A stretch of DNA of 64,000 nt from Candidatus Parcubacteria bacterium (GTDB lineage Bacteria; Patescibacteriota; Minisyncoccia; Phycocordibacterales; Zambryskibacteraceae), in assembly GCA_019661865.1 (NCBI GenBank), contig JAIFWJ010000002.1, positions 52,898 through 116,897 on the forward strand, read 5' to 3'. The notes under the pieces were generated by a model. The model did not search any database, was not told where the DNA came from, and was given only the letters and a program-made list of their open reading frames with translations. This document shows positions 1,719-45,811 of this stretch, one piece after another; position 1 is the stretch's first letter; the number at the start of each line of letters is the position of its first letter. The position numbers and the translations under genes were made by a program.

Positions 1719-1722
1719 TTTG

Positions 1723-1795
1723 TGCCCCCAGTAGGAATCGGACCTACGACCCTCTCCTTAAAAGGGAGCTGCTCTACCAACTGAGCTATGGGGGC
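1723..1795 (-). tRNA. tRNA-Lys (anticodon TTT)
   Basis: The reverse complement folds as a cloverleaf: acceptor GCCCCCA/TGGGGGC, D-arm GCTC-AGTTGGTA-GAGC, anticodon loop CTTTTAA, T-arm GTAGG-TCCGATT-CCTAC. Confidence 0.7.
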
Positions 1796-19205: not shown

Positions 19206-19345
19206 GTTTCTTAATCTTATCTCTTTTCATAGAAAATGCTAAGCCTGTTGGCATAGGGCTAATTATAATGGTAAAATTTGAGCACAATTGAATAAGAAAT
19301 GACCTAACCCCTCGAGCTAAAACTTTAGGATATGGTCGAAAATCC

Positions 19346-19392
19346 CATGGAAGATACTGAACCCCACGTTCAGCGACTCTTCCATGGGTCAC
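19346..19392. repeat. nested inverted repeat carrying CCATGG motifs (candidate operator, iteron or ncRNA)
   Basis: cccatggaaga-ta-ctgaac-cccac-gttcag-cgac-tcttccatggg. A third cccatggaa copy sits at 19476 and a GNRA hairpin gggccGCAAggccc at 19422. Confidence 0.4.
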
Positions 19393-19479
19393 ATCGGGAA
19401 ACTGGTGTGTGGGCCGCAAGGCCCTGCTGGCGTGGGGTTCTGTGTTTCCACGCTAGCAATTATTCGCTAGTAAAAACCC

Positions 19480-33699: not shown

Positions 33700-34500
33700 T
33701 TGAGTTTGCAAAAAAGGAACTTGTTTGTTACATATAAAGCTAGAACCTTCCTTTTGGAGGAGATTATGACGCTACGGAACTTGGTTTTGCATTTTTTCAG
33801 CATGTATGGTCGACGTAATGATCTTTTTCTACCAGATGTGAGAACTCGTCTTGATCTTTTGAACTTTGGTATTGCAGACTGGCAAGATGCTATTCGCAAA
33901 CATCGAGAAAACAGACAAGTTTTGAACGTGGCTGCCGCTAGAGTAGTGAGCAGAATCTTTTGTGTCAACCACGCATACCCAACTGTAGTGCTAGATATAT
34001 CTCTAGCAAAGAAATTTGGAAGAGGATGTGGATACTGTAAGCACATTCCCTGCATCTGCCAAGGAGACAGAAGGGAATCTCTTACCACCTCCTCGACTCA
34101 ACGTGAGTACTGGTCACTTGGAGATTGGAGTAGCCATCTGGGTGCTCTTTATGGGGAGGCCAATCGGAGGGCCGGGGTTGAAAATGTTCTCAATCGTCTG
34201 CAGAGCGAATTCTCTGAATTCGCTCGCCTAGTCGCAGAGACTCAAACTGGGCGATTCGAGATAGATGAACTTGAGATGGAGCTCGGCCTCGAGCTTGCTG
34301 ACATGCTTGCTTGGACCATCGGACTTGCTGGTGTCCTAGATATTGACTTGGAAGGAGCTGTCAGACATTACTATGGAAAAGGCTGTCTGGCATGCCAGAG
34401 TCCAAGCTGTAGGTGCTCTAAGCACTTTGTCCGGCAAGTAGATTGGTCCAGGTGGCTTCTTACCAGAGGTGAGGAAGCTGCATCTGGGTATGTCCGCTAG
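33700..34500 (+). CDS. MazG-like NTP pyrophosphohydrolase-fold protein with two Cys clusters
   Basis: EIDELEMELGLELADMLAWTIGLA is a MazG-type EExxE helix. Cys clusters are CGYCKHIPCIC and CLACQSPSCRC. The gene is about 50% GC. An alternative start is 33766. Confidence 0.45.
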   Translation: MSLQKRNLFVTYKARTFLLEEIMTLRNLVLHFFSMYGRRNDLFLPDVRTRLDLLNFGIADWQDAIRKHRENRQVLNVAAARVVSRIFCVNHAYPTVVLDISLAKKFGRGCGYCKHIPCICQGDRRESLTTSSTQREYWSLGDWSSHLGALYGEANRRAGVENVLNRLQSEFSEFARLVAETQTGRFEIDELEMELGLELADMLAWTIGLAGVLDIDLEGAVRHYYGKGCLACQSPSCRCSKHFVRQVDWSRWLLTRGEEAASGYVR

Positions 34501-34566
34501 TGTTAGTCCATCCTACGATTATTGGATGGACTTTTTAATTTCTTCAATTTCAGTATGATAGGCAGA

Positions 34567-36135
34567 ATGAAGCAGACTCTCACCGAGCTCATCAAGACAT
34601 TTGTAGGCGGGAATGCACGATTTACTGTAGAGCACCCAACGAATCTTGAGTTTGGAGATTATTCTACTAATGCTGGTATTGTCTCGAAGAAGTCAGATGA
34701 ACTCTTGGAATTTTTAAATAAGAATAAACCAGAAGAAGTAGAAAGAGTGGAGAATAAAAATGGATTTATAAACTTCTATCTTTCAAAAAAGTTTTTTAGT
34801 GATTCGTTAAAAGAAATTATTAAAGCGGGAGATGACTTCGGAAGAGGAGAAAGTGGTAAGGGCTCCAAGGTTATGGTGGAGTACACAGATCCGAACCCTT
34901 TTAAGGAGTTCCATATTGGACACCTCATGTCTAATACTATAGGTGAAGCAGTTTCAAGAATTATCCAGTGGAATGGCGCAGAAGTTAAACGAGCCAACTA
35001 TCAAGGTGATGTAGGCATGCATGTGGCCAAGGCAGTATGGGGGATGCTTCATGAGAAGAAGGACCCATATGTAGCAGGAGAGAAAGCATATGAGGATGAT
35101 GAGAATGTGAAGTTCGAGATTCAAGAAATAAATCGGAAAATTTATGACAAGAGTGATGAGAATATAAATAAACTATACGAAGACGGGAGAAAAAAGAGTC
35201 TGGAGAAGTTTGAAGAAATATACAAGAGACTCGGCACTAAGTTCGACTACTACTTCTTTGAATCAGAGACTGCTGAACTTGGGAAAAAAATTGTTCTAGA
35301 TAACCCAGGTACATTTGTCGAGTCGCAGGGTGCAGTCGTCTTTAATGCTGGTGATCATGACAAGTCGCTCCACACTCGTGTGTTTATAAACTCTGAAGGC
35401 ATACCTACATATGAGGCCAAGGAGTTGGGACTCGCCAAGATAAAATACGATAAGTATCCATATACATTCTCGGTGGTTATCACTGGTAATGAAGTGAAGG
35501 ATTATTTCAGAGTTTTACTCCAGGCCATGAAATTAGTTTTCCCGGACCTAGCGAGTAAAACTCACCATCTTCCGCACGGAATGTTGCGTCTCCCTAGCGG
35601 TAAGATGTCCTCGCGTACCGGAGAAGTCATAACGGCAGAAAGTATGATTGAGGAAGTGAAGGGGAAAGTTAAGGATGATGAGAATGTGGCCATAGGAGCA
35701 TTGAAGTACTCTATACTGAAGCAAGGTGTCGGCGGAGACATTGTCTTCGATATTAATCAGTCTGTTTCTACAGAGGGCGACTCGGGAGTTTACCTCCAAT
35801 ATGCACACGCAAGAGCAAACTCGCTTATTGAAAAAGCAGAAGCACAAGGAGTCTCTATAAATACAGATTCCCAAGAAGATTCTTTAGTAAGAGAAGTAGA
35901 AAGGTTTCTATATAGATTTCCAGAAATTATCCCACGTGCAATGGATGACTTTGCACCTAACTACATAGCTACTTATCTTATTGAGCTTGCCTCAAGCTTT
36001 AATAATTTCTATGCTCATGAGCAAGTGATAGGAGGAGAGAATTCAGGATACAAACTTGCCATAGTTCGGGCTTTCAAAACAGTTATGAAAAATGGCCTAA
36101 CCGTTCTCGGTATTCCAGCCCCTGAAAGGATGTAG
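34567..36135 (+). CDS. argS: arginine--tRNA ligase
   Basis: HIGH motif (FHIGHLMSNTIGEA) and a C-terminal DALR anticodon-binding region. Alternative starts are 34522 and 34555. Confidence 0.85.
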   Translation: MKQTLTELIKTFVGGNARFTVEHPTNLEFGDYSTNAGIVSKKSDELLEFLNKNKPEEVERVENKNGFINFYLSKKFFSDSLKEIIKAGDDFGRGESGKGSKVMVEYTDPNPFKEFHIGHLMSNTIGEAVSRIIQWNGAEVKRANYQGDVGMHVAKAVWGMLHEKKDPYVAGEKAYEDDENVKFEIQEINRKIYDKSDENINKLYEDGRKKSLEKFEEIYKRLGTKFDYYFFESETAELGKKIVLDNPGTFVESQGAVVFNAGDHDKSLHTRVFINSEGIPTYEAKELGLAKIKYDKYPYTFSVVITGNEVKDYFRVLLQAMKLVFPDLASKTHHLPHGMLRLPSGKMSSRTGEVITAESMIEEVKGKVKDDENVAIGALKYSILKQGVGGDIVFDINQSVSTEGDSGVYLQYAHARANSLIEKAEAQGVSINTDSQEDSLVREVERFLYRFPEIIPRAMDDFAPNYIATYLIELASSFNNFYAHEQVIGGENSGYKLAIVRAFKTVMKNGLTVLGIPAPERM

Positions 36136-36192
36136 ACAAAGATGGGAGATAGTAGTACTATCACACTGGTCTTTGTTTAACATGGAGGTTGT

Positions 36193-36534
36193 ATGACAGA
36201 TTTGTTCCGAGAGCTTACAGAACTAAGAGAAAAAGCTCTAAAACGACTTGAGAGGGAGAAGATTGAAGCTGAGCGAGCATCCTTAGAAAGGTGTACAAAA
36301 GAAGCGCAAGAAATTATCAAATCCTTGCCCGACAAATTACGCGAGGCTGCCAATGCAGGCAACAGAAACCTGGAAATCTATACATTTTCTACCTCAAAGG
36401 GCAACAGTGAACACCCTGTATTTGTATTAGTGACCGCTTGGGCTCAGAAACACGGTCTTGTGGCACAAATTATGAAGCAAGTAGATGATGAGGGATATTC
36501 GTATGGCGGAAAGCTAATGATTTTCATTGAGTAA
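36193..36534 (+). CDS. hypothetical protein
   Basis: 113 aa with a coiled-coil N-terminus. No recognisable domain. Confidence 0.4.
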   Translation: MTDLFRELTELREKALKRLEREKIEAERASLERCTKEAQEIIKSLPDKLREAANAGNRNLEIYTFSTSKGNSEHPVFVLVTAWAQKHGLVAQIMKQVDDEGYSYGGKLMIFIE

Positions 36535-36592
36535 CTAGTGGCGGGAGCCACTTTTTTGTAAAAAACATAATAAGTGTTAGGATACGAGAACG

Positions 36593-39500
36593 ATGCCTGA
36601 AGATAAAGGGCTGCCTAAGTCAGCTAGAGCCGAAAGGGAAGAACAAATTCTCGCTTTCTGGAAAGAGAATCAAATATTCGAGAAATCACTTAAGAAACCC
36701 GGGATAAAGGGTGAATTCGTGTTTTATGAAGGCCCCCCTACCGCCAACGGTCGCCCAGGTATCCACCATATAGAGTCACGCTCCTTTAAGGACGCTATAC
36801 CGCGCTTTAAGACCATGCAGGGATTCCATGTGCCGAGGAAAGCAGGCTGGGACACCCACGGCCTCCCGGTGGAGCTTGAAGTAGAGAAGAAGCTAGGGTT
36901 AAAGAGCAAGAAAGAGATCGAGAAGTATGGAGTGGAGAAGTTTAACCAGATGTGCCGCGAGAGTGTGGGCACATATATAGATGAATGGGAGAAGTTCTCA
37001 GAGCGCATGGGTTATTGGGCCGACTTAGATAACGCCTACTTCACTTATAGAAATTCATATATCCAAGCTGTTTGGTCAATTATTTCTCATGTAAATGACA
37101 GGGGACTTTTATATAAGGACTACAAAGTACTTCCATGGTGCCCACGTTGTGGCACTGCCCTTTCCTCGCACGAGCTTGCACAGCCGGGTGCATATCAAGA
37201 TGTAAAGGACCTCTCCATATATGCGAAATTTAAAGTAGTAGGAGAGGATAACACTTTCATCTTGGCATGGACCACAACTCCATGGACTCTACCAGGAAAT
37301 CTCGCTCTCGCAGTTGGGGAAGATATTGATTATATAAAAGTAAAATCTGGTGAGGAAATTTATGTTCTGGGGGAGACCTTCGGGGATCTTGTAGAGAATG
37401 GAGAAGTGGTAGAGAGACTTAAAGGTAAGGATCTCGTAGGTCTTTCCTATGAACCGCTGTATCCATTTATGCGTGAGAGATTCCCGGACAATGACAAAAT
37501 GTTTAAAGTTTACTCGGCCAACTTCGTCACTACAGAGGATGGTACGGGTATAGTTCATACGGCTGTGATGTATGGCCAAGATGACTTCGTCTTGGGGACA
37601 GAGGTGGGACTTCCCAAGGAGCACCTTGTCTCACCAGAGGCCACATTCCTTAAACACACCGGTTGGCTTGAAGGTCGATCGGTAATAGATCCAGAACTAG
37701 CAGTAGATATACTTAAGGATCTTCAGAAAAGAAATCTAGTTTTCAAAAAAGAAAATCATCTTCACTCGTACCCCTTCTGCTGGAGATGTAAAACACGACT
37801 TATCTACTATGCACGTGACTCGTGGTACATAGCAATGTCGCGTCTGCGTGATGGACTGGTTAAAGAGAATGAGAAAATAAATTGGGAACCGGAATACATT
37901 AAGGAGGGCAGATTCGGCGAATGGCTCCGAGAGGTGAAGGACTGGGCAATTTCCCGTGAGAGGTATTGGGGTACACCACTGCCTGTATGGGAGGCACAGG
38001 ATAAGAGTGATCGCATCCTAGTAGATTCACTCGATACTCTTAAAAAATATATTAAAAGTTCTGGCAATAAATATTTTGTCATGCGCCATGGTGGTACGAA
38101 AGGAAACAAGTCTGAGATAGTGAGCTTTAAACATGAGGCCAAAGATCATTTAACTTCTGCGGGCCGAGATCAGGTGGCACTTACAGCACAGGCGCTGCGG
38201 GATAGAAATATTAATGTAATCGTCTGCTCGCCATTTACCCGCACTACTGAAACCGCAGAGATTGTGGCAGAAACCCTAGGTATTAAAACTCTGGTGAAAG
38301 ATAAGAGGTTCCAAGAAGTGGATCCTGGAGAGTTCGATGGTAAAAACTGGAATGAATATCATCAGTACGTATATGGTCTGGGGCCGGACTGGTTTAATCA
38401 TCGGATTCCAGGAGGTGAGTCTCTCTCTGAAGTCAATAAACGCGTGGCAGAGTCGCTTTATGAACTTGAAGAAAAGTATCAACAGAAAAACATTCTCATA
38501 ATCACCCACGGCGGACCAGCTTGGGTAGCGTTTGTAAACTCTGGTCTCCATGTACCAGAAGGGAAAGAATATCGAAACTATACTACTCAAGACACTCGTA
38601 TATTCGTAAATGACTTTAAGCGGTTTCAGAATGCTGAAGTTAGAGAGCTGCCATTTGTGCCGCTACCTCACGACAAAGAATTCCAACTGGATTTACACAA
38701 GCCTTTTATAGATGATGTGATACTAGTTAAAAATGGTAAGGAGTATAAGAGGGTAAAGGAGGTTATGGATGTCTGGCTCGACTCTGGAGCCGTGCCTTTC
38801 GCCCAGGAATCTGGTGAGAGAGAGGTTCCCACAGACTTCTCTCATATTGTCTACCCGGCGGACTTCATTTCGGAAGCTATAGATCAGACTCGCGGGTGGT
38901 TCTATACCTTACATGCCGTGGGTGTACTTATGGAAAAGGGCCAAGCCTTTAAAAACAACATTTGCTTGGGACATATCCTAGACAAGGAGGGCAAGAAGAT
39001 GAGTAAGTCGGTGGGCAATGTAGTAGATCCGTGGATCATGATGGATAAGTTCGGAGCAGACACTCTGCGTCTGTGGATGTATTCGGTAAATCAGCCCGGA
39101 GAGTCTAAGAACTTCGACGAGCGTTCCCTGGATGAAATACAGAAAAGGGTATTTAACCTCCTTGATAATGTTTATGCATTTTATGAAATCTATAGGGATA
39201 AGTCTCTTGAAGTGGAGTCTCAGGTAGAACTTAAGAACGTCCTCGACATATGGATTCTTATGAGAATGAATGAGTTAGTAAATATCATGACGCAGAGACT
39301 AGAGAGCTTCCAACTCCTCGAGCCGGTTAGGGCCCTCCGAGATTTCATTGATGATCTCTCCACATGGTATCTGCGCCGCTCACGGGAGAGGCTTAAGGAA
39401 GGAGATACTGATGCTAAGAGGACCTTGTACTATGTATTGAAAACAGTTTCTAAACTCTTCTCACCCTTCGCACCTTTCGCAGCAGAGGATCTTTACCAGA

Positions 39501-39967
39501 AGTTGAGAGCCGATGCGGATCCATTGAGCGTTCATTTAGAAGCTTGGCCAGAAGGTGGGGAAGTAGATAAGAGTGTGTTAGAGAAGATGAAGAAGACACG
39601 AGAGATCGTCTCGCGCGGACTCGAAGCACGTTCAAAGGCCAATATAAAAATCCGTCAGCCCCTCGCTTCGCTTACTATTAAACTTGACGGAGCTCATGAA
39701 GACTTAATCAAGGAAGAAGTAAATGTGAAGCGAGTAGTAGATACAGATACCGGAGAGGCAATACTTAATACCAATCTTTCACTAGAACTTATCGAAGAGG
39801 GTAAAGTACGAGAAATTATTAGAGCTATCCAAGAAATGAGAAAAGAAAAAGGTCTAAACCCTAAAGACAAGATTCGATATAAGCCAGATCCTGCGAGCAG
39901 AGAACTCTTTTATAAATATCAAGATGTGATTGCCGGTACTACCAATATAGAAATTGAGTGGGACTAG
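36593..39967 (+). CDS. ileS: isoleucine--tRNA ligase carrying an internal histidine-phosphatase (PGAM-like) domain
   Basis: HIGH (PGIHHIESR) and KMSKS (KKMSKSVGN) motifs are present. WAISRERYWGTPLPVW and MDVWLDSG are separated by about 250 aa that include FVMRHGGT...CSPFTRTTETA...IITHGGPAW. Confidence 0.85.
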   Translation: MPEDKGLPKSARAEREEQILAFWKENQIFEKSLKKPGIKGEFVFYEGPPTANGRPGIHHIESRSFKDAIPRFKTMQGFHVPRKAGWDTHGLPVELEVEKKLGLKSKKEIEKYGVEKFNQMCRESVGTYIDEWEKFSERMGYWADLDNAYFTYRNSYIQAVWSIISHVNDRGLLYKDYKVLPWCPRCGTALSSHELAQPGAYQDVKDLSIYAKFKVVGEDNTFILAWTTTPWTLPGNLALAVGEDIDYIKVKSGEEIYVLGETFGDLVENGEVVERLKGKDLVGLSYEPLYPFMRERFPDNDKMFKVYSANFVTTEDGTGIVHTAVMYGQDDFVLGTEVGLPKEHLVSPEATFLKHTGWLEGRSVIDPELAVDILKDLQKRNLVFKKENHLHSYPFCWRCKTRLIYYARDSWYIAMSRLRDGLVKENEKINWEPEYIKEGRFGEWLREVKDWAISRERYWGTPLPVWEAQDKSDRILVDSLDTLKKYIKSSGNKYFVMRHGGTKGNKSEIVSFKHEAKDHLTSAGRDQVALTAQALRDRNINVIVCSPFTRTTETAEIVAETLGIKTLVKDKRFQEVDPGEFDGKNWNEYHQYVYGLGPDWFNHRIPGGESLSEVNKRVAESLYELEEKYQQKNILIITHGGPAWVAFVNSGLHVPEGKEYRNYTTQDTRIFVNDFKRFQNAEVRELPFVPLPHDKEFQLDLHKPFIDDVILVKNGKEYKRVKEVMDVWLDSGAVPFAQESGEREVPTDFSHIVYPADFISEAIDQTRGWFYTLHAVGVLMEKGQAFKNNICLGHILDKEGKKMSKSVGNVVDPWIMMDKFGADTLRLWMYSVNQPGESKNFDERSLDEIQKRVFNLLDNVYAFYEIYRDKSLEVESQVELKNVLDIWILMRMNELVNIMTQRLESFQLLEPVRALRDFIDDLSTWYLRRSRERLKEGDTDAKRTLYYVLKTVSKLFSPFAPFAAEDLYQKLRADADPLSVHLEAWPEGGEVDKSVLEKMKKTREIVSRGLEARSKANIKIRQPLASLTIKLDGAHEDLIKEEVNVKRVVDTDTGEAILNTNLSLELIEEGKVREIIRAIQEMRKEKGLNPKDKIRYKPDPASRELFYKYQDVIAGTTNIEIEWD

Positions 39968-39974
39968 CTCCGTA

Positions 39975-40547
39975 ATGTCTCATCATATTTACAATACTAA
40001 AGGAGTAATTCTTAACTCTCGTACTCAAAGGGAAGCGGATAGAGTCTACTCAATCCTGACGGAAGATCTGGGGCTTGTACGAGCTACAGCTCAAGGTGTG
40101 CGCAAGGGCAGCTCTAAATTGGGAGGAATCCTGATGAAGTTTTCCCTTATAAACCTTTCTCTAGTAAAGGGCAGGAATATCTGGCGCATTACTACTGCTA
40201 CTGGAGATGAGAGAGTTAAGTGGTCAAGAATGAAGCTTGTATCACTGGCTAGAGTGCTATCTCTACTCGAGAAACTAATCCACGGAGAAGAAAAGTCTAA
40301 GAAACTATTTCAGACCCTAGTCGAGTCAATAGAATTTCTTAAATCTGTTGAGGATAATGAAAGTGAATTATGGGAGGTACTGGTTGTATCCAGGTTATTA
40401 AACTCTCTCGGGTACATGTCTCCCACCGAAACGCTGAAGGGCTATCTTACAGATGAGTGGAGTCAAGAGCTCATAAGAGAAACTCTGAAAAACAAGAAAA
40501 ATTTAGTGCAGCTAATAAATAAAGGTCTGAAAGAGAGTGGTTTCTGA
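39975..40547 (+). CDS. recO: DNA repair protein RecO
   Basis: N-terminal OB domain (TKGVILNSRTQREADRVYSILTEDLG) and a helical C-terminal domain. Confidence 0.7.
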   Translation: MSHHIYNTKGVILNSRTQREADRVYSILTEDLGLVRATAQGVRKGSSKLGGILMKFSLINLSLVKGRNIWRITTATGDERVKWSRMKLVSLARVLSLLEKLIHGEEKSKKLFQTLVESIEFLKSVEDNESELWEVLVVSRLLNSLGYMSPTETLKGYLTDEWSQELIRETLKNKKNLVQLINKGLKESGF

Positions 40548-40564
40548 AGTGTTATAATACCTAT

Positions 40565-42487
40565 ATGCAAGAAGATAAAGGAAGAATTGATGATTTAAAT
40601 GAGTCACTAAACTCGCGCACGAGCTACCGTGCTCCAGGGGAGTATCGAGTTCCCATAAGCCCCTCCGAAGCTCCGGCTGTCCAAGATAACTGGCAAGGCT
40701 CTCCAAATATAGATGAAATGCTCACCTCGGACCGCAGAGTAAACCGGAATCATCCTCTGATGAGACGTGTATTTATCTTGGCTTTGGCCTTCTTCATTTG
40801 TGCACTTTTCGCTGCTGCATATATTTTCCTGGGAGGGAAGAACTTTATATCAACTAAAAACGTAGAGGTGAGCATCCGCGGACCAGTCTCGGTAAATGCG
40901 GGAGATATATTAAGTTTCGAAGTCTCAGTACTAAATAAAAATAATGCAGACTTAGATACTTCCTCTCTTACCATTCAGTATCCAGATGGAACCAGGAATC
41001 CAGATAATCCTTCTAAGAACCAGGGCTTCACCAAGGAAGATCTTGGTGAGCTTGGTTCAGGCAAGGAAGTGACAAAGACGGAGAATGCCATTCTTTTCGG
41101 TACTAAGGGAGAAGTGAAGGAGATAAAGGCATCTGTCGACTACAAGATTAAGGGATCTAACGCCACCTTTTCGGTGGATAAAACTTTCGAGGTCACTATA
41201 GGAGCAGTGCCGGTAACTATGACAGTAACTGGAGATACTAATGTCACTTCTGGAGATACTTACACCACTACTGTGACTCTTATTTCTAACTCGCCACAAC
41301 TTCTTAAGAATGTTGTGGTAAAGGGCGAGTATCCGTATGGGTTTACTCTCTTAGACTCTAGTCCATCTTCACCCTCTGGCTCTGATAATGTCTGGGTAAT
41401 AGGTGACATGGTTCCGGGTGCAAGACGGGTGATTACTCTACATGGTAAGTTGTTGGGAGAAGATAGTGAGGAAAGAACATTTAGATTTTACGCCGGAGTT
41501 TCTGCGGCCCAAGATCCAGAGAAACTAGATACGGCGCTTGCTTCAGTATTTCAGACTATCGCACTTAGTCGCCCAGAGGTACAGATTAAGCTTGCTTTAA
41601 ATGGAGAAAGTTCCCAAACATACATCGCTCCTCCTGGTAGACTAGTCGAAGGGACGCTTACACTTACGAACAATTCTCCAACTGCAGTTATAAAAAATCA
41701 CATCGAGGCCAAACTAGTTGGAAATTTCTTGGATCGATCCAGTGTGAAGACCAGCGGAAGCGGTTTCTACAACTCTCAGACGAACACTATAGTCTGGGAT
41801 GCCCAAGACACTCATGACCTCACCAAGATCGCACCAGGAGACAGTGCGCTTTTTTCGTTTAGCTTCCTTTCTTTATTAAATAATACGCCGAATGCTGGTA
41901 CGCCTGAGATTAACCTTTCAGTTTCTGCTTCGGGAGTCACCCAAGGATCTCAGACCGGAAATTACACCACTAATACAACTCGGAAGGTTAAGCTTGCTTC
42001 TGTAGTAAGTCTCGGTGCACGAACTCTACACTCCAAGGGCCCGTTCGAAAATACCGGGCCTCTACCTCCACGCGCAGAACAAGAGACTACATATGCGGCC
42101 GTCTTCGACCTAGGTAACACTCAGAGTGATATAAAGGATGCCAAGCTTACAGCAACCCTTGGTCCTGGAGTGGTCTGGGTTATGCCATACTCTAAAAGTA
42201 GTGAGAGCACCTCGTACGATGCCACTACGCGTAGGTTCACTTGGGATGTGGGCACCTTGCCCTCTGGTACTGGGTTCGGCACTCCGGTGAGAGAAGTGGC
42301 TATACAAGTGCGTCTTACTCCGTCCCTAAGTCAGGTCTCATCAGTGCCTGTGCTCGTAACAGATATCAGATTTACCGGAACAGATACATTTACCAACCAA
42401 GAGATCACTATGACTGCGCCTTCACTTACTACAAGTATGCCGAGTGACCCAGCCTTCATACAGGGTGATGAGGTGGTTGTTAAATAG
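40565..42487 (+). CDS. hypothetical membrane-anchored surface protein (large Thr/Ser/Val-rich ectodomain)
   Basis: 640 aa with an N-terminal cytoplasmic segment, one transmembrane helix (VFILALAFFICALFAAAYIFLGG), then beta-rich repeats. Confidence 0.45.
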   Translation: MQEDKGRIDDLNESLNSRTSYRAPGEYRVPISPSEAPAVQDNWQGSPNIDEMLTSDRRVNRNHPLMRRVFILALAFFICALFAAAYIFLGGKNFISTKNVEVSIRGPVSVNAGDILSFEVSVLNKNNADLDTSSLTIQYPDGTRNPDNPSKNQGFTKEDLGELGSGKEVTKTENAILFGTKGEVKEIKASVDYKIKGSNATFSVDKTFEVTIGAVPVTMTVTGDTNVTSGDTYTTTVTLISNSPQLLKNVVVKGEYPYGFTLLDSSPSSPSGSDNVWVIGDMVPGARRVITLHGKLLGEDSEERTFRFYAGVSAAQDPEKLDTALASVFQTIALSRPEVQIKLALNGESSQTYIAPPGRLVEGTLTLTNNSPTAVIKNHIEAKLVGNFLDRSSVKTSGSGFYNSQTNTIVWDAQDTHDLTKIAPGDSALFSFSFLSLLNNTPNAGTPEINLSVSASGVTQGSQTGNYTTNTTRKVKLASVVSLGARTLHSKGPFENTGPLPPRAEQETTYAAVFDLGNTQSDIKDAKLTATLGPGVVWVMPYSKSSESTSYDATTRRFTWDVGTLPSGTGFGTPVREVAIQVRLTPSLSQVSSVPVLVTDIRFTGTDTFTNQEITMTAPSLTTSMPSDPAFIQGDEVVVK

Positions 42488-42510
42488 ACTGAATACGATA
42501 GGATAACGAC

Positions 42511-43731
42511 ATGGCTGAAAGTGACTTAATGGAGAAAATAATCTCACTCGCGAAGAGAAGAGGATTTATATATCAAGGCTCTGAAATCTATGGTGGTCTG
42601 GCTGGTACTTGGGACTATGGTCCTTTAGGAGTAGAGCTCAGAAACAATGTGAAGGATATCTGGTGGAAGATGTTTGTGAAATCACGCGAGGATATGTACG
42701 GAGTAGGAACTTCCATCATTATGAACAAACAAGTCTGGGAAGCATCTGGACATGTAGCAGGGTTCGCAGATCCTACGGAGACTGGTGAGAAGTTTAATGT
42801 GATGTTTAAGACAACTGTCGGAGCAGGGGAGGAAGCGACTATTTCATATCTAAGACCTGAAACTGCACAGGGAATATTTGTAAATTTTAAGAATATTCTT
42901 GACTCATTTCACCCTAAGCTTCCATTCGGTATTGCGCAGATAGGCAAAGCATTTAGAAATGAGATCTCTCCACGCGACTTTATCTTTCGTTCACGTGAGT
43001 TCGAGCAGATGGAAGTGGAATACTTCGTCCGAGAAGCAGAATGGGAGAAGTATTTTGAGGCCTGGAGAGATACAATGCACGAATTCAGTAAGCTCGTCGG
43101 TATAAAAAACATACACGAACTAAATGTGGGGGATGAAGATCGGGCACATTACTCGAAGAAGACCATAGACTTCGAATTCGAATATCCGTTCGGTAGGAAA
43201 GAACTTTGGGGTCTGGCATATCGTACTGACTTCGACCTCCGGAATCACTCTGGAGCATCTGGTGTATCACTTGAATACTTTGACGAAGAATCTGGAGAAA
43301 GATTTACTCCTCATGTCATTGAGCCCTCTCTTGGAGTAGACAGAACCATTCTTGCCATTCTTGCATCTACATATACGGAAGATGAGCTTGGGGGAGAGAC
43401 TCGCAGCTATTTGAAATTGCCGAAGGAAGTTGCACCCGTACGTGCGGCAATCTTCCCACTACTTAAGAATAAGCCCGAGCTCGTCATTAAGGCCAGAGAA
43501 GTTTATGAAAGTCTGAAAGATGAAAATTATAATATTGTATTTGACGACAATGGTAATATCGGCAAGCGTTACAGAAGGCAAGATGAGATAGGTACACCCT
43601 TCTGTATCACGGTCGACTTCGACACTTTAGGAGAGAATCCAGAGCATAAAGATACCGTAACCCTCCGTGACCGTGATACAGGAGAGCAGAAGAGAGTAAG
43701 GATAGGGGACCTAAAAGAGGCAATAAAATAA
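42511..43731 (+). CDS. glyQS: glycine--tRNA ligase (dimeric class II)
   Basis: Motif 2 FRNEISPRDFIFRSREF and motif 3 GVDRTILAILA, followed by a C-terminal anticodon-binding domain. Confidence 0.85.
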   Translation: MAESDLMEKIISLAKRRGFIYQGSEIYGGLAGTWDYGPLGVELRNNVKDIWWKMFVKSREDMYGVGTSIIMNKQVWEASGHVAGFADPTETGEKFNVMFKTTVGAGEEATISYLRPETAQGIFVNFKNILDSFHPKLPFGIAQIGKAFRNEISPRDFIFRSREFEQMEVEYFVREAEWEKYFEAWRDTMHEFSKLVGIKNIHELNVGDEDRAHYSKKTIDFEFEYPFGRKELWGLAYRTDFDLRNHSGASGVSLEYFDEESGERFTPHVIEPSLGVDRTILAILASTYTEDELGGETRSYLKLPKEVAPVRAAIFPLLKNKPELVIKAREVYESLKDENYNIVFDDNGNIGKRYRRQDEIGTPFCITVDFDTLGENPEHKDTVTLRDRDTGEQKRVRIGDLKEAIK

Positions 43732-43850
43732 GGATTTTCTATTTTTGACAAAAGACCAGTTTTGTTTTATACTGCCCGCAGGTAGTTCCTTAAGCATCCG
43801 CCTCGGATAAGAGGAAATTCCAAGGGCAACCGAGCCCTAAGGAGAGTCCA

Positions 43851-44456
43851 ATGGACTTCGCATCGCAGAACCTAACAGCCGGCCAACTGAACGCCATCGT
43901 GAAGAAACTCGGTGGTGAAGACGGAGCAATGCGGTTCCTCCGTGGTGAAATCGTGGTGGCGGTTCCAACCCCTCCCGCGTTCTCCATCTGGAAGACCGTC
44001 AAGCTCGGCACAGGCAAGAAGAACGCCGACGATTACCGCTCTGCGATCTCGCAGGCGAGGATGAAAATCGGTAACTGGGGCAACGACATCCTCGGCAAGC
44101 CCGCCTTCACGGTGAGCGAGACGGAGGTGGACCTCGACCTCGTGGTCGTGAGGGTGTTGGACCTCGGCTTCAAGGACGGGGCCTACAGTCAGGTCATCAT
44201 CACCAAGGCGTTGGATCTGGGTCTCCAGCTCTGCCCCGCCGAGGTCGGACCGGCACTACGTTTAGAGTATCGCGACCAGCCGAAGGGCGAGTGGCTCGTC
44301 ATCGGGATGGAACCCATCACCGGTTCGGACGGCCATCCCTACGTCTTCCACGTTGCTCACGACCACGACGAGCGTTGGCTCCACGGCTCCCACGGCTACC
44401 CTGTCAACTTCTGGCATGCCGACTACCGTTTCGTCTTCGTTCGTCCGAAGGAGTAA
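43851..44456 (+). CDS. hypothetical protein encoded in a ~60% GC islet
   Basis: 201 aa. An SD (aaggag) sits 6 nt upstream and its own terminator downstream. The composition differs sharply from the flanking genes. Confidence 0.5.
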   Translation: MDFASQNLTAGQLNAIVKKLGGEDGAMRFLRGEIVVAVPTPPAFSIWKTVKLGTGKKNADDYRSAISQARMKIGNWGNDILGKPAFTVSETEVDLDLVVVRVLDLGFKDGAYSQVIITKALDLGLQLCPAEVGPALRLEYRDQPKGEWLVIGMEPITGSDGHPYVFHVAHDHDERWLHGSHGYPVNFWHADYRFVFVRPKE

Positions 44457-44476
44457 CACCTTAAACTCTATAACTG

Positions 44477-44506
44477 GCCCTGCAAAGTATCGCGGGGCTT
44501 TTTTGT
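44477..44506 (+). terminator. rho-independent terminator
   Basis: gccctgc-aaagtatc-gcggggc followed by tttttt. Confidence 0.5.
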
Positions 44507-44542
44507 TGAAAGAAGACGAGAGATCGAGTACTCTAATGATCT

Positions 44543-45811
44543 ATGAAGTACAAAAGAACGAAGTTAAGTAATGGTGTGCGGATTATAACGGTGCCCAATA
44601 AAGGTAATCCTTCAGTTACTGTCATGGTGGCGACAGAGACTGGCTCTAACCATGAGAGTAAGGAAGAAAACGGATTGTCGCATTTTCTTGAGCATATGTT
44701 ATTTAAAGGCACACCAACTCGCCCGAGTTCCATGGCAGTTTCTTTGGAGTTAGACAGTATCGGTGCTGAATCCAATGCATTTACATCTAACGAGATTACT
44801 GCGTACCATGCCAAGAGTGATAAAAGGCATTGGAAGAAACTTCTCGAAGTTGTTTCAGATATGTATCTAAACGCATCTCTTCCAGCCGCAGAGCTCGAGA
44901 AAGAAAGAGGAGTGATCCTCCAAGAGATCTCCATGTATGAAGATTTACCAGAAAGAAAGGTTTGGGATGTATTAGGAACACTTTTATACGGAGATACTCC
45001 GGCCGGTCGTACCACTCTAGGTCTAAGTGAAAATATAAAAAACTTCTCCCAAGCAAAGTTCAGAGAGTATAAAGACAAACACTATGTAGCAGGTAAGACG
45101 ATCGTGATTGTCTCTGGAGATGTTAAGCCTAGTGAGGTAGAGGTTATGGTTAAGAAAATCTTTAAAGATATTCCTAAAGGAAAAGTTATAAAGCAGGAGA
45201 AGGTGGAGGACAATCAGAAAGAACCTGCACTTAAACTTGAGACCAAGACTTCTGATCAGACCCACATGGTCATGGCCTTCCGTGCACATAGTGCTCGCGA
45301 TAAACGTAACATCACGGTGTCACTCCTCATGAATATTCTTGGGGGAGGAATGTCTTCAAGGTTATTTCAAAAACTTAGAAACGAACTTGGTGCATGTTAC
45401 TACGTAAGGACATATAACGACTCCTATACTGATCATGGATTCGTGGCTATAGCCACAGGTATAGATAAAAACCGTGCACCTGAGATCGTAGAAGCTTTAA
45501 TAGAAGAAGCCAAGAAGCTTAAGACTGAGCTTGTCACTAAAGAAGAACTACAAAAGAATAAGGATTATATGATTAGTCACGCCGTCATGGCTCTCGAAAC
45601 GTCGGATAATGTAGCTGGATTCGTGGCCGAAGGAGAAGTAGTAAGAGGCAAAGTTATGACTATTGAAGAAATTGAAAAGAAGATTCTATCTATAACTTCC
45701 AAGGAAGTACAGAAAATAGCTAATGAAATTTTCAAAGATGAGAATATAAACCTGGCAATTGTTGGAAACATCTCTGACGCAGAGCCCATCAAGAAAGTTC
45801 TACACTTCTAA
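44543..45811 (+). CDS. M16-family zinc peptidase (insulinase-like)
   Basis: HFLEHMLFKGT is the inverted zincin HxxEH motif. A downstream Glu (ERGVILQE) provides the third zinc ligand. Confidence 0.8.
   Translation: MKYKRTKLSNGVRIITVPNKGNPSVTVMVATETGSNHESKEENGLSHFLEHMLFKGTPTRPSSMAVSLELDSIGAESNAFTSNEITAYHAKSDKRHWKKLLEVVSDMYLNASLPAAELEKERGVILQEISMYEDLPERKVWDVLGTLLYGDTPAGRTTLGLSENIKNFSQAKFREYKDKHYVAGKTIVIVSGDVKPSEVEVMVKKIFKDIPKGKVIKQEKVEDNQKEPALKLETKTSDQTHMVMAFRAHSARDKRNITVSLLMNILGGGMSSRLFQKLRNELGACYYVRTYNDSYTDHGFVAIATGIDKNRAPEIVEALIEEAKKLKTELVTKEELQKNKDYMISHAVMALETSDNVAGFVAEGEVVRGKVMTIEEIEKKILSITSKEVQKIANEIFKDENINLAIVGNISDAEPIKKVLHF

Follow-up and report, generated by a model that had tools for sequence, protein, structure and literature searches.

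A type-2 isoleucyl-tRNA synthetase gene with an embedded histidine phosphatase domain

The DNA analyzed here is a stretch of 64,000 nucleotides (the 64-kb window) of contig JAIFWJ010000002.1 from Candidatus Parcubacteria bacterium. It contains an ileS gene for a type-2 isoleucyl-tRNA synthetase (IleRS), and within the coding sequence of this enzyme lies a histidine phosphatase domain (Table 1). An earlier note on this DNA had described the product as one polypeptide with IleRS sequence on both flanks of the phosphatase, and this description was borne out. The open reading frame (ORF) is a single continuous frame without internal stops, and the NCBIfam ileS equivalog TIGR00392 scores 850.2 bits (cut-off 621.4) in two stretches parted by the insert. 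Pfam tRNA-synt_1 is likewise divided around the insert, with its first stretch stopping at amino acid (aa) 487, and Anticodon_1 and DUF5915 are found downstream of His_Phos_1.

Table 1. Features of the ileS gene and its insert. Close, the 120 best database homologues; distant, the 88 insert-bearing representatives among the best 150 clusters. IleRS2, type-2 IleRS.
Feature	Residues	Coordinates	Strand	Remarks
ileS ORF	1124 aa plus stop	36593..39967	+	Type-2 (eukaryote-like) IleRS with embedded phosphatase domain
IleRS N-terminal part	aa 1-486	36593..38050	+	First Rossmann half, CP1 editing domain, WGTPLPVW beta-strand
Degenerate first zinc knuckle	WEAQDKSD	37988..38011	+	Canonical IleRS2: WECEGCQH
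Insertion relative to canonical IleRS2	aa 487-695 (209 aa)	38051..38677	+	Short conserved linkers and a complete branch-1 histidine phosphatase domain
Pfam His_Phos_1 (PF00300) match	aa 495-646	38075..38530	+	Profile positions 2-154 of 194; E 5.1e-32; 111.5 bits, gathering score 21.7
RHG motif	R498, H499 (nucleophile), G500	38084..38092	+	R498 and H499 in 120/120 close; H in 88/88 and R in 87/88 distant
Phosphate-pocket Asn	N505	38105..38107	+	120/120 close; 74/88 distant
Second phosphate-binding Arg (CSPFTRTTETA)	R550	38240..38242	+	120/120 close; 87/88 distant
Presumed general acid/base	E575	38315..38317	+	119/120 close; E in 85 and D in 4 of 89 rows (88 distant plus query)
GES...R segment	E609 to R617	38417..38443	+	E609 in 88/88 and R617 in 86/88 distant; R617 invariant in close set
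Second catalytic His (IITHGG)	H639	38507..38509	+	120/120 close; 88/88 distant
IleRS C-terminal part	aa 696-1124	38678..39964	+	DLHKP, VKNGKEY, DVWLDSG, DQTRGWF, KMSKS, anticodon-binding domain, DUF5915
Degenerate second zinc knuckle	VKNGKEY	38726..38746	+	8c8w: TCPVCSG

Outside the insert, the protein has the three-dimensional architecture of an IleRS. Its closest solved relative, the Priestia megaterium IleRS2 structure 8c8w (E 4e-226), aligns to query aa 11-486 and 696-1089; the N-terminal part of the query corresponds to 8c8w residues 9-477, with a predicted local distance difference test score (pLDDT) mostly above 85, and the C-terminal part to residues 483-893. The class I motifs are present as a HIGH-type PGIHH (aa 55-59) and KMSKS (aa 802-806, 38996..39010), and the CP1 editing motifs WTTTPWTLPGN and DGTGIVHTA are both in the ORF. 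Key residues of the IleRS motifs are invariant, in the N- and C-terminal parts alike, across the 120 best database hits (58-68% identity; from NCBI, JGI, ENA and Logan assemblies with contigs as long as 808 kb), which we refer to as close homologues. Models for exceptional forms of the enzyme stay below their cut-offs, namely NF040702, which has a GNAT domain (307 vs 1999 bits), and, by a wide margin, the mupirocin-resistance MupA/MupB models NF000257 and NF000258 (694 and 733 bits, each vs 1900). We conclude that the protein is the housekeeping type-2 IleRS of a Parcubacteria bacterium of the Candidate Phyla Radiation (CPR/Patescibacteria).

The identical protein at NCBI (P0001; homologous proteins are given by such P numbers) carries only the label 'class I tRNA ligase family protein [Candidatus Parcubacteria bacterium]', as do several homologues by family name, despite reaching the IleRS equivalog threshold. 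Presumably the insertion is what causes the NCBI naming rules to fail on these proteins.

The insert occupies the tip of the zinc-knuckle hairpin, between the WGxPxP strand (here WGTPLPVW) and DLHKP...DVWFDSG; the hairpin emerges from the Rossmann fold between this strand and the DxWFDSG helix. In the 8c8w alignment, the gap is bounded by residues 477 and 483 of the solved structure, so that about 5 residues there stand against 209 in the query. The earlier note had placed an insert of about 155 aa at 38072..38536. That segment (aa 494-648, YFVMRHGG...IITHGGPAWVAFV) is indeed phosphatase, and the RHG, CSPFTRTTETA and IITHGG motifs named for it are all in the ileS-frame translation; its length was underestimated, since the true insertion is about 209 aa. 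The His_Phos_1 profile check that the note called for gave a score far over the gathering score.

Both the 8c8w alignment and AlphaFold2 (AF2) models indicate that the divergent C-terminal quarter of the phosphatase domain escapes the Pfam match: in the models, the beta-alpha-beta core runs on beyond it, and its final strand lies at aa 683-686 (NAEVRELPF). Confidence is high across most of the insert in the full-length model (pLDDT 92-98), and in a model of aa 455-738 (pLDDT 86.8) most of the phosphatase domain exceeds 90. The inserted segment is an entire domain rather than a fragment. The linkers that join it to the synthetase, KSGN.YF and NAEVRELPF.PLPH, are conserved among homologues.

Distribution of the embedded domain in CPR bacteria

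PF00300 is present in every close homologue (120/120), and the source names of this set include Parcubacteria, Zambryskibacteria, Nomurabacteria, Minisyncoccia and Paceibacterota. In a more distant set, the best 150 of 1.84 billion representatives of 50%-identity clusters, 88 proteins contain the phosphatase domain, at overall identities to the query down to 36%. The spacing from WGxP to DxWFDS is about 260 aa in these 88, compared with about 65-75 aa in the remaining 62. At least 22 insert-bearing loci (L001-L022) are among the matches listed for GTDB species genomes; their labels, which are taxon labels of metagenome-assembled genomes as deposited, read Patescibacteria, Paceibacteria, Minisyncoccia, Yanofskybacteria, Spechtbacterales, Peregrinibacteria/Peribacteria and, by bin label, 'Saccharibacteria'. 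One insert-bearing bin labeled Gammaproteobacteria is probably mislabeled. Because Bacteroidota, Firmicutes and others show just the short canonical hairpin among the GTDB matches listed, ordinary type-2 IleRS is a protein without the insert. The search of related genomes suggested at the outset thus recovered this insertion in over 200 homologues from independent assemblies, and the insertion is not a common feature of ordinary type-2 IleRS.

These data bear on whether an assembly or gene-calling error could have joined ileS to a separate phosphatase gene. The window does come from a metagenome-type assembly, which would give such an artefact its opening, but we regard its probability as negligible: the frame continues into IleRS on both sides, the full-length AF2 model is confident through both junctions, and the same architecture recurs in contigs that were assembled independently, number in the hundreds and reach 808 kb. 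A chimera is implausible because the insertion is found in those more than 200 homologues, and we reject both an assembly chimera and a frameshift on the strength of the continuous frame and this recurrence.

Some close orthologues have no insert, including P0123 (60% identical) and the Komeilibacteria protein P0271, both encoded in argS-ileS-recO synteny. No His_Phos gene that might represent a split-gene precursor lies within 8 kb of ileS in either case. On a crude neighbor-joining tree of the IleRS core, from which inserted domains had been excised, we counted at least 24 changes between presence and absence over 139 tips, a figure to be taken as indicative only. Since it is lost in orthologues, the phosphatase domain is accessory to the synthetase.

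Conservation of the phosphatase active site and loss of the zinc knuckle

The residues of the phosphatase active site are listed in Table 1 together with their conservation; G524 is likewise invariant in the close set. About 86 of the 88 distant insert-bearing representatives retain the core R-H-R-E(D)-H, and the few exceptions in catalytic residues are in apparently truncated sequences. Among close homologues, mean pairwise identity is 50% for the insert, 73-75% for the catalytic core, 58% for the anticodon-binding domain and 45% for the C-terminal domain. This pattern of identity is that expected of a domain maintained by purifying selection, its active site preserved.

The hairpin that bears the insert has itself changed. 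All four cysteines of the second IleRS zinc site (CxxC...CxxC in 8c8w) are gone in the query, and 117 of the 120 close homologues have no Cys there. This loss would suit a catalytically inert domain that serves as a structural stand-in for the zinc knuckle or as a module for docking tRNA or protein, and the conserved linkers would fit a fixed docking arrangement. We consider an inert domain very improbable, since the catalytic residues are invariant or nearly so at overall identities as low as 36%, many insert-bearing relatives keep an intact CxxC...CxxC knuckle, and P0163, P0183 and P0232 are missing both the cysteines and the insert. On the latter two observations we reject the narrower proposal that the insert replaces the zinc knuckle. 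Because many distant relatives with an insert at this position (site A, below) retain both CxxC knuckles, we propose that the domain entered an intact knuckle hairpin and that the clade of the query lost the cysteines later.

The insert resembles small-molecule phosphatases of branch 1

The insert has the branch-1 alpha/beta fold of the histidine phosphatase superfamily (PF00300). A Foldseek search with the model of aa 455-738 returned the metal-independent phosphoserine phosphatase PspA (4ij6, root-mean-square deviation 2.1 A) as the best match, followed by Rv2419c, PhoE, CobC and TIGAR. The domain superposes on phosphatases of the PspA, PhoE, CobC and Rv2419c type and not on mutases, and it has a full-size cap region as in PhoE/CobC-type enzymes, unlike the minimal SixA form. 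Sequence and model together place it among the small phosphatases of branch 1 (PhoE/CobC/PspA-like).

Scores against the subfamily equivalogs were all below threshold. The CobC alpha-ribazole phosphatase model TIGR03162 was the highest-scoring of those tested (89.5-94 bits vs 162.9), and the PspA model NF045917 remained below its cut-off although PspA is the best structural match (66-69 bits vs 350). Models for cofactor-dependent phosphoglycerate mutase (dPGM; NF038349, TIGR01258 and PRK equivalogs) were missed as well, with 63-68 bits vs 225 for dPGM_arch and at most 23 bits vs more than 300 for the bacterial models. The second His of the query stands in an HGG context, which is typical of phosphatases, whereas mutases have HGNS. 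On model scores and motif context together, we reject a glycolytic dPGM.

An embedded domain of this superfamily might instead act on proteins, removing phosphate from His or from Ser/Thr/Tyr. It could reverse an inhibitory phosphorylation of IleRS, such as might be imposed by HipA/HipT-like toxin kinases, which target aminoacyl-tRNA synthetase (aaRS) active sites, or it could act on a signaling protein with IleRS as the scaffold. There is a bacterial precedent in mycobacterial MutT1, whose RHG-type C-terminal domain dephosphorylates sensor kinases (PMC12407098). This role nevertheless seems improbable for the query, in which the SixA model TIGR00249 aligns with the N-terminal half alone and misses its threshold (36.7-41.6 bits vs 74.5), the cap is of full PhoE/CobC size, the best matches are PspA, Rv2419c and PhoE, and no kinase is conserved in the gene neighborhood.

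Further insertion sites, double copies and additional domains

When unusually long relatives were scanned for domains and their motifs were mapped, the same type of phosphatase domain appeared at several positions in CPR IleRS. Site A, between the first knuckle and DLHRP, is used by the query and by the majority of insert-bearing IleRS. Site A2 lies between DLHRP and DxWFDS and holds a second, tandem copy in Peribacteria/Peregrinibacteria IleRS of about 1470-1490 aa (P0253, L018-L021), while site B, between DxWFDSG and GxDQxRGWF, is occupied in P0226 and in P0237 (PCI25629.1, Candidatus Peregrinibacteria). Site C follows KMSKS and precedes the anticodon-binding domain; it holds the domain alone in P0169 and as a second copy in P0216. 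Variants with two phosphatase domains are therefore of the A+A2 type (P0253 and L018-L021, e.g. L019:4459-8931) or the A+C type (P0216), with lengths of about 1420-1490 aa, and both of their copies keep the RHG motif and the second His. As it occupies several sites and is sometimes present in two copies, we regard the phosphatase domain as recurrent. Taken with its distribution, these comparisons indicate that the architecture is real, old, accessory and recurrent, and that it is widespread in CPR bacteria.

Domains at different sites are about 27-31% identical, as are site A members among themselves, and at this level of identity a domain tree gave no signal on the origin of the site B and site C domains. 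A search for stand-alone relatives of the site C domain gave two 216-aa proteins with 32-35% identity.

Two insert-bearing proteins, each from one database cluster, have acquired other domains. P0269 combines a site A phosphatase with a P-loop kinase-like domain (AAA_18/AAA_33, aa 747-869, Walker A GACGAGKT) at site B, after DCWFESG, and P0058 has an added C-terminal HD/HDIG phosphohydrolase domain (aa 1140-1258). Separately, we observed in Peribacteria/Peregrinibacteria loci L017-L021 that the gene immediately upstream of the double-phosphatase ileS, in the same orientation, is of the RelA/SpoT type (HD_4 + RelA_SpoT; e.g. L019:209-2980, + strand).

Gene neighborhood and other features of the window

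The conserved gene order across 34522..45811 is argS, a 113-aa ORF, ileS, recO, a DUF11 surface-type protein and a class II aaRS. Of 22 related loci, about 10-11 have argS next to ileS, and the same holds for recO, for the DUF11 gene and for a class II aaRS gene. The wider neighborhood is housekeeping only, with thyX-like and tmk genes in addition to those just named. Three ORFs (33700..34497, 36193..36531 and 43851..44453) have no Pfam match, and there is no other His_Phos gene in the 64-kb window.

Two RNA features elsewhere in the window were recorded. ARAGORN reports a 'tRNA-Stop' with anticodon TTA at 1722..1795 (- strand), where the Rfam tRNA match scores 68.4 bits. Folded by hand in the canonical cloverleaf register, this tRNA has the loop CTTTTAA and the anticodon TTT (Lys), so the suppressor call is probably a register error of one base. 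At 19301..19425 (+ strand) is a full-length match to the LOOT RNA motif (Rfam RF03000; 85.7 bits vs a gathering score of 46.4, E 9e-15), a small RNA motif.

A proposed accessory activity tethered to IleRS

The query is a housekeeping IleRS with a complete PhoE/CobC/PspA-like phosphatase domain in its knuckle hairpin, and we think it probable that this domain provides an accessory activity tethered to the synthetase. With its synthetic and editing motifs intact, IleRS would charge tRNA-Ile as usual. The embedded domain would hydrolyze phosphomonoesters by way of a phospho-His499 intermediate, with R498, R550, N505 and H639 holding the phosphate and E575 as the putative acid/base. Its activity would lie outside the aminoacylation chemistry and would gain from the tether to IleRS, as is suggested by the use of four or more sites in CPR IleRS, the occasional duplication and the repeated loss of the domain. 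By analogy with the best structural relatives, all of which are small-molecule phosphatases, a small phosphorylated metabolite or a nucleotide is the most likely class of substrate.

Several observations weigh against this proposal. Homology confers no specificity on the domain because no NCBIfam equivalog cut-off is reached, and the gene neighborhood, in which housekeeping synteny alone is conserved, offers no clue to a substrate. Conservation of the phosphate-binding pocket is compatible also with a ligand-sensing role that involves no turnover. Finally, the domains at different sites are too diverged for independent captures to be told from relocation within the gene.

A closer connection would have the phosphatase mechanistically coupled to the synthetase, acting in cis on one of its ligands, whether a nucleotide by-product, a 3'-phosphorylated tRNA-Ile end or an inhibitory phosphate placed on IleRS by a toxin kinase. 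CPR bacteria would then have built an active phosphatase into the catalytic face of IleRS time and again on account of this coupling; we hold coupling in this broad sense to be possible but doubtful. Coupling to the aminoacylation site in particular, in which the domain would pull or repair the reaction by acting on AMP, on ADP or ATP from Ap4A side reactions, on pyrophosphate or on a 3'-phosphorylated or damaged tRNA-Ile acceptor end, is in our judgment unlikely. Such coupling could account for the position of sites A, A2 and B, all of which lie between those parts of the second Rossmann half that build the active site (WGxPxP, DxWFDSG and GxDQxRGWF), and recurrent insertion with duplication suggests selection for proximity. 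The kinase-like domain at site B of P0269 and the HD phosphohydrolase domain of P0058 are in keeping with it, as is the presence of the nucleotide-like phosphatases CobC and the riboflavin-pathway HFP among the nearest solved relatives. Against such coupling, both termini of the phosphatase fold are on the far side from its catalytic pocket, which would therefore be expected to face away from the point of attachment. No branch-1 histidine phosphatase known to us has RNA ends or pyrophosphate as its substrate, and the embedded domains show no consistent basic bias of the kind that would signal RNA binding (median isoelectric point about 7). In addition, site C follows KMSKS, outside the Rossmann core, and the insert-less orthologues function without the domain.

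At the other extreme, the domain might be a metabolic enzyme that hitch-hikes on IleRS without a functional link, such as a dPGM, a phosphoserine phosphatase or another housekeeping phosphatase, with the fusion ensuring that both are expressed together in a very small genome. Reduced genomes prone to fusions are typical of CPR bacteria, the top Foldseek match is the phosphoserine phosphatase PspA, the window has no second His_Phos gene and close orthologues dispense with the domain. A neutral passenger would not be expected at four or more positions in one host protein, nor in two copies; furthermore, the dPGM and PspA cut-offs are missed by wide margins, and the HGG context of the second His is phosphatase-like rather than that of a mutase. 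We therefore view a passenger without any link as an unlikely explanation, on a par with coupling to the aminoacylation site, and favor the tethered accessory activity.

Relation to known systems and significance

Neither component of the protein is unusual by itself, as an ordinary type-2 IleRS here hosts an ordinary phosphatase; what is unusual is their combination and the internal position of the insert. Canonical type-2 IleRS (P. megaterium 8c8u/8c8w; Thermus thermophilus 1ile) has about 5 residues where the query has 209, along with a four-Cys zinc knuckle that is absent from the query. Related small, broad-specificity phosphatases, namely PhoE (1h2e), CobC (3hjg/6nru/6e4b), PspA (4ij5), the Rv2419c GpgP enzyme (4pz9) and the riboflavin-pathway enzyme (9mmh), are free-standing proteins of about 200 aa, whereas the query domain is internal and 20-25% identical to them. 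Known fusions resemble the query in linking the phosphatase to an enzyme that handles nucleotides or nucleic acids, but they are joined end to end, whereas the query domain is inserted within the catalytic domain of its host. This is so in mycobacterial MutT1 (Nudix plus histidine phosphatase, 9cxx; PMC12407098), in the Rv2228c-type RNase H/acid phosphatase (PRK07238), whose NCBIfam model scores 93.8 bits with the insert and is one of its best matches, and in PFK-2/FBPase-2 (1c7z, 5hr5), whose pairing of kinase and phosphatase is echoed by the P-loop kinase and phosphatase domains of P0269.

There are precedents on the side of the synthetase as well. IleRS with a GNAT domain (NF040702, ileS_w_GNAT) shows that the enzyme can carry an extra enzymatic domain, which is a histidine phosphatase here, and the CP1 editing domain and the leucine-specific domain of LeuRS show that large insertions are tolerated by the class Ia Rossmann fold. 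The fidelity of aminoacylation is what CP1 and similar modules serve, and no such role is known for the query insert. The earlier note knew of no described IleRS with an embedded phosphatase, and our full-text search of 7.7 million PMC papers and 0.34 million bioRxiv preprints, to which subscription-only papers do not belong, agrees: it found no description of any aaRS with a histidine phosphatase domain. The feature appears to be undescribed even though the sequences are public and have precomputed PF00300 hits.

Aminoacyl-tRNA synthetases are among the best-studied enzymes, and the bacterial aaRS insertions known to us serve tRNA recognition or editing. Here, a second and unrelated catalytic domain sits within the Rossmann fold and has been kept over a large part of the CPR. 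Its recurrence and conservation point to a selected link between the charging of tRNA-Ile and a phosphate-ester reaction in episymbionts with minimal genomes. If that link is mechanistic, an aaRS would here have gained an accessory activity not known before, an event of the same kind as the acquisition of the CP1 editing domain; if it is one of co-expression alone, the protein would provide a clean natural case of a catalytic domain inserted into an essential enzyme without breaking it. The insert would also serve as a lineage marker for CPR IleRS.

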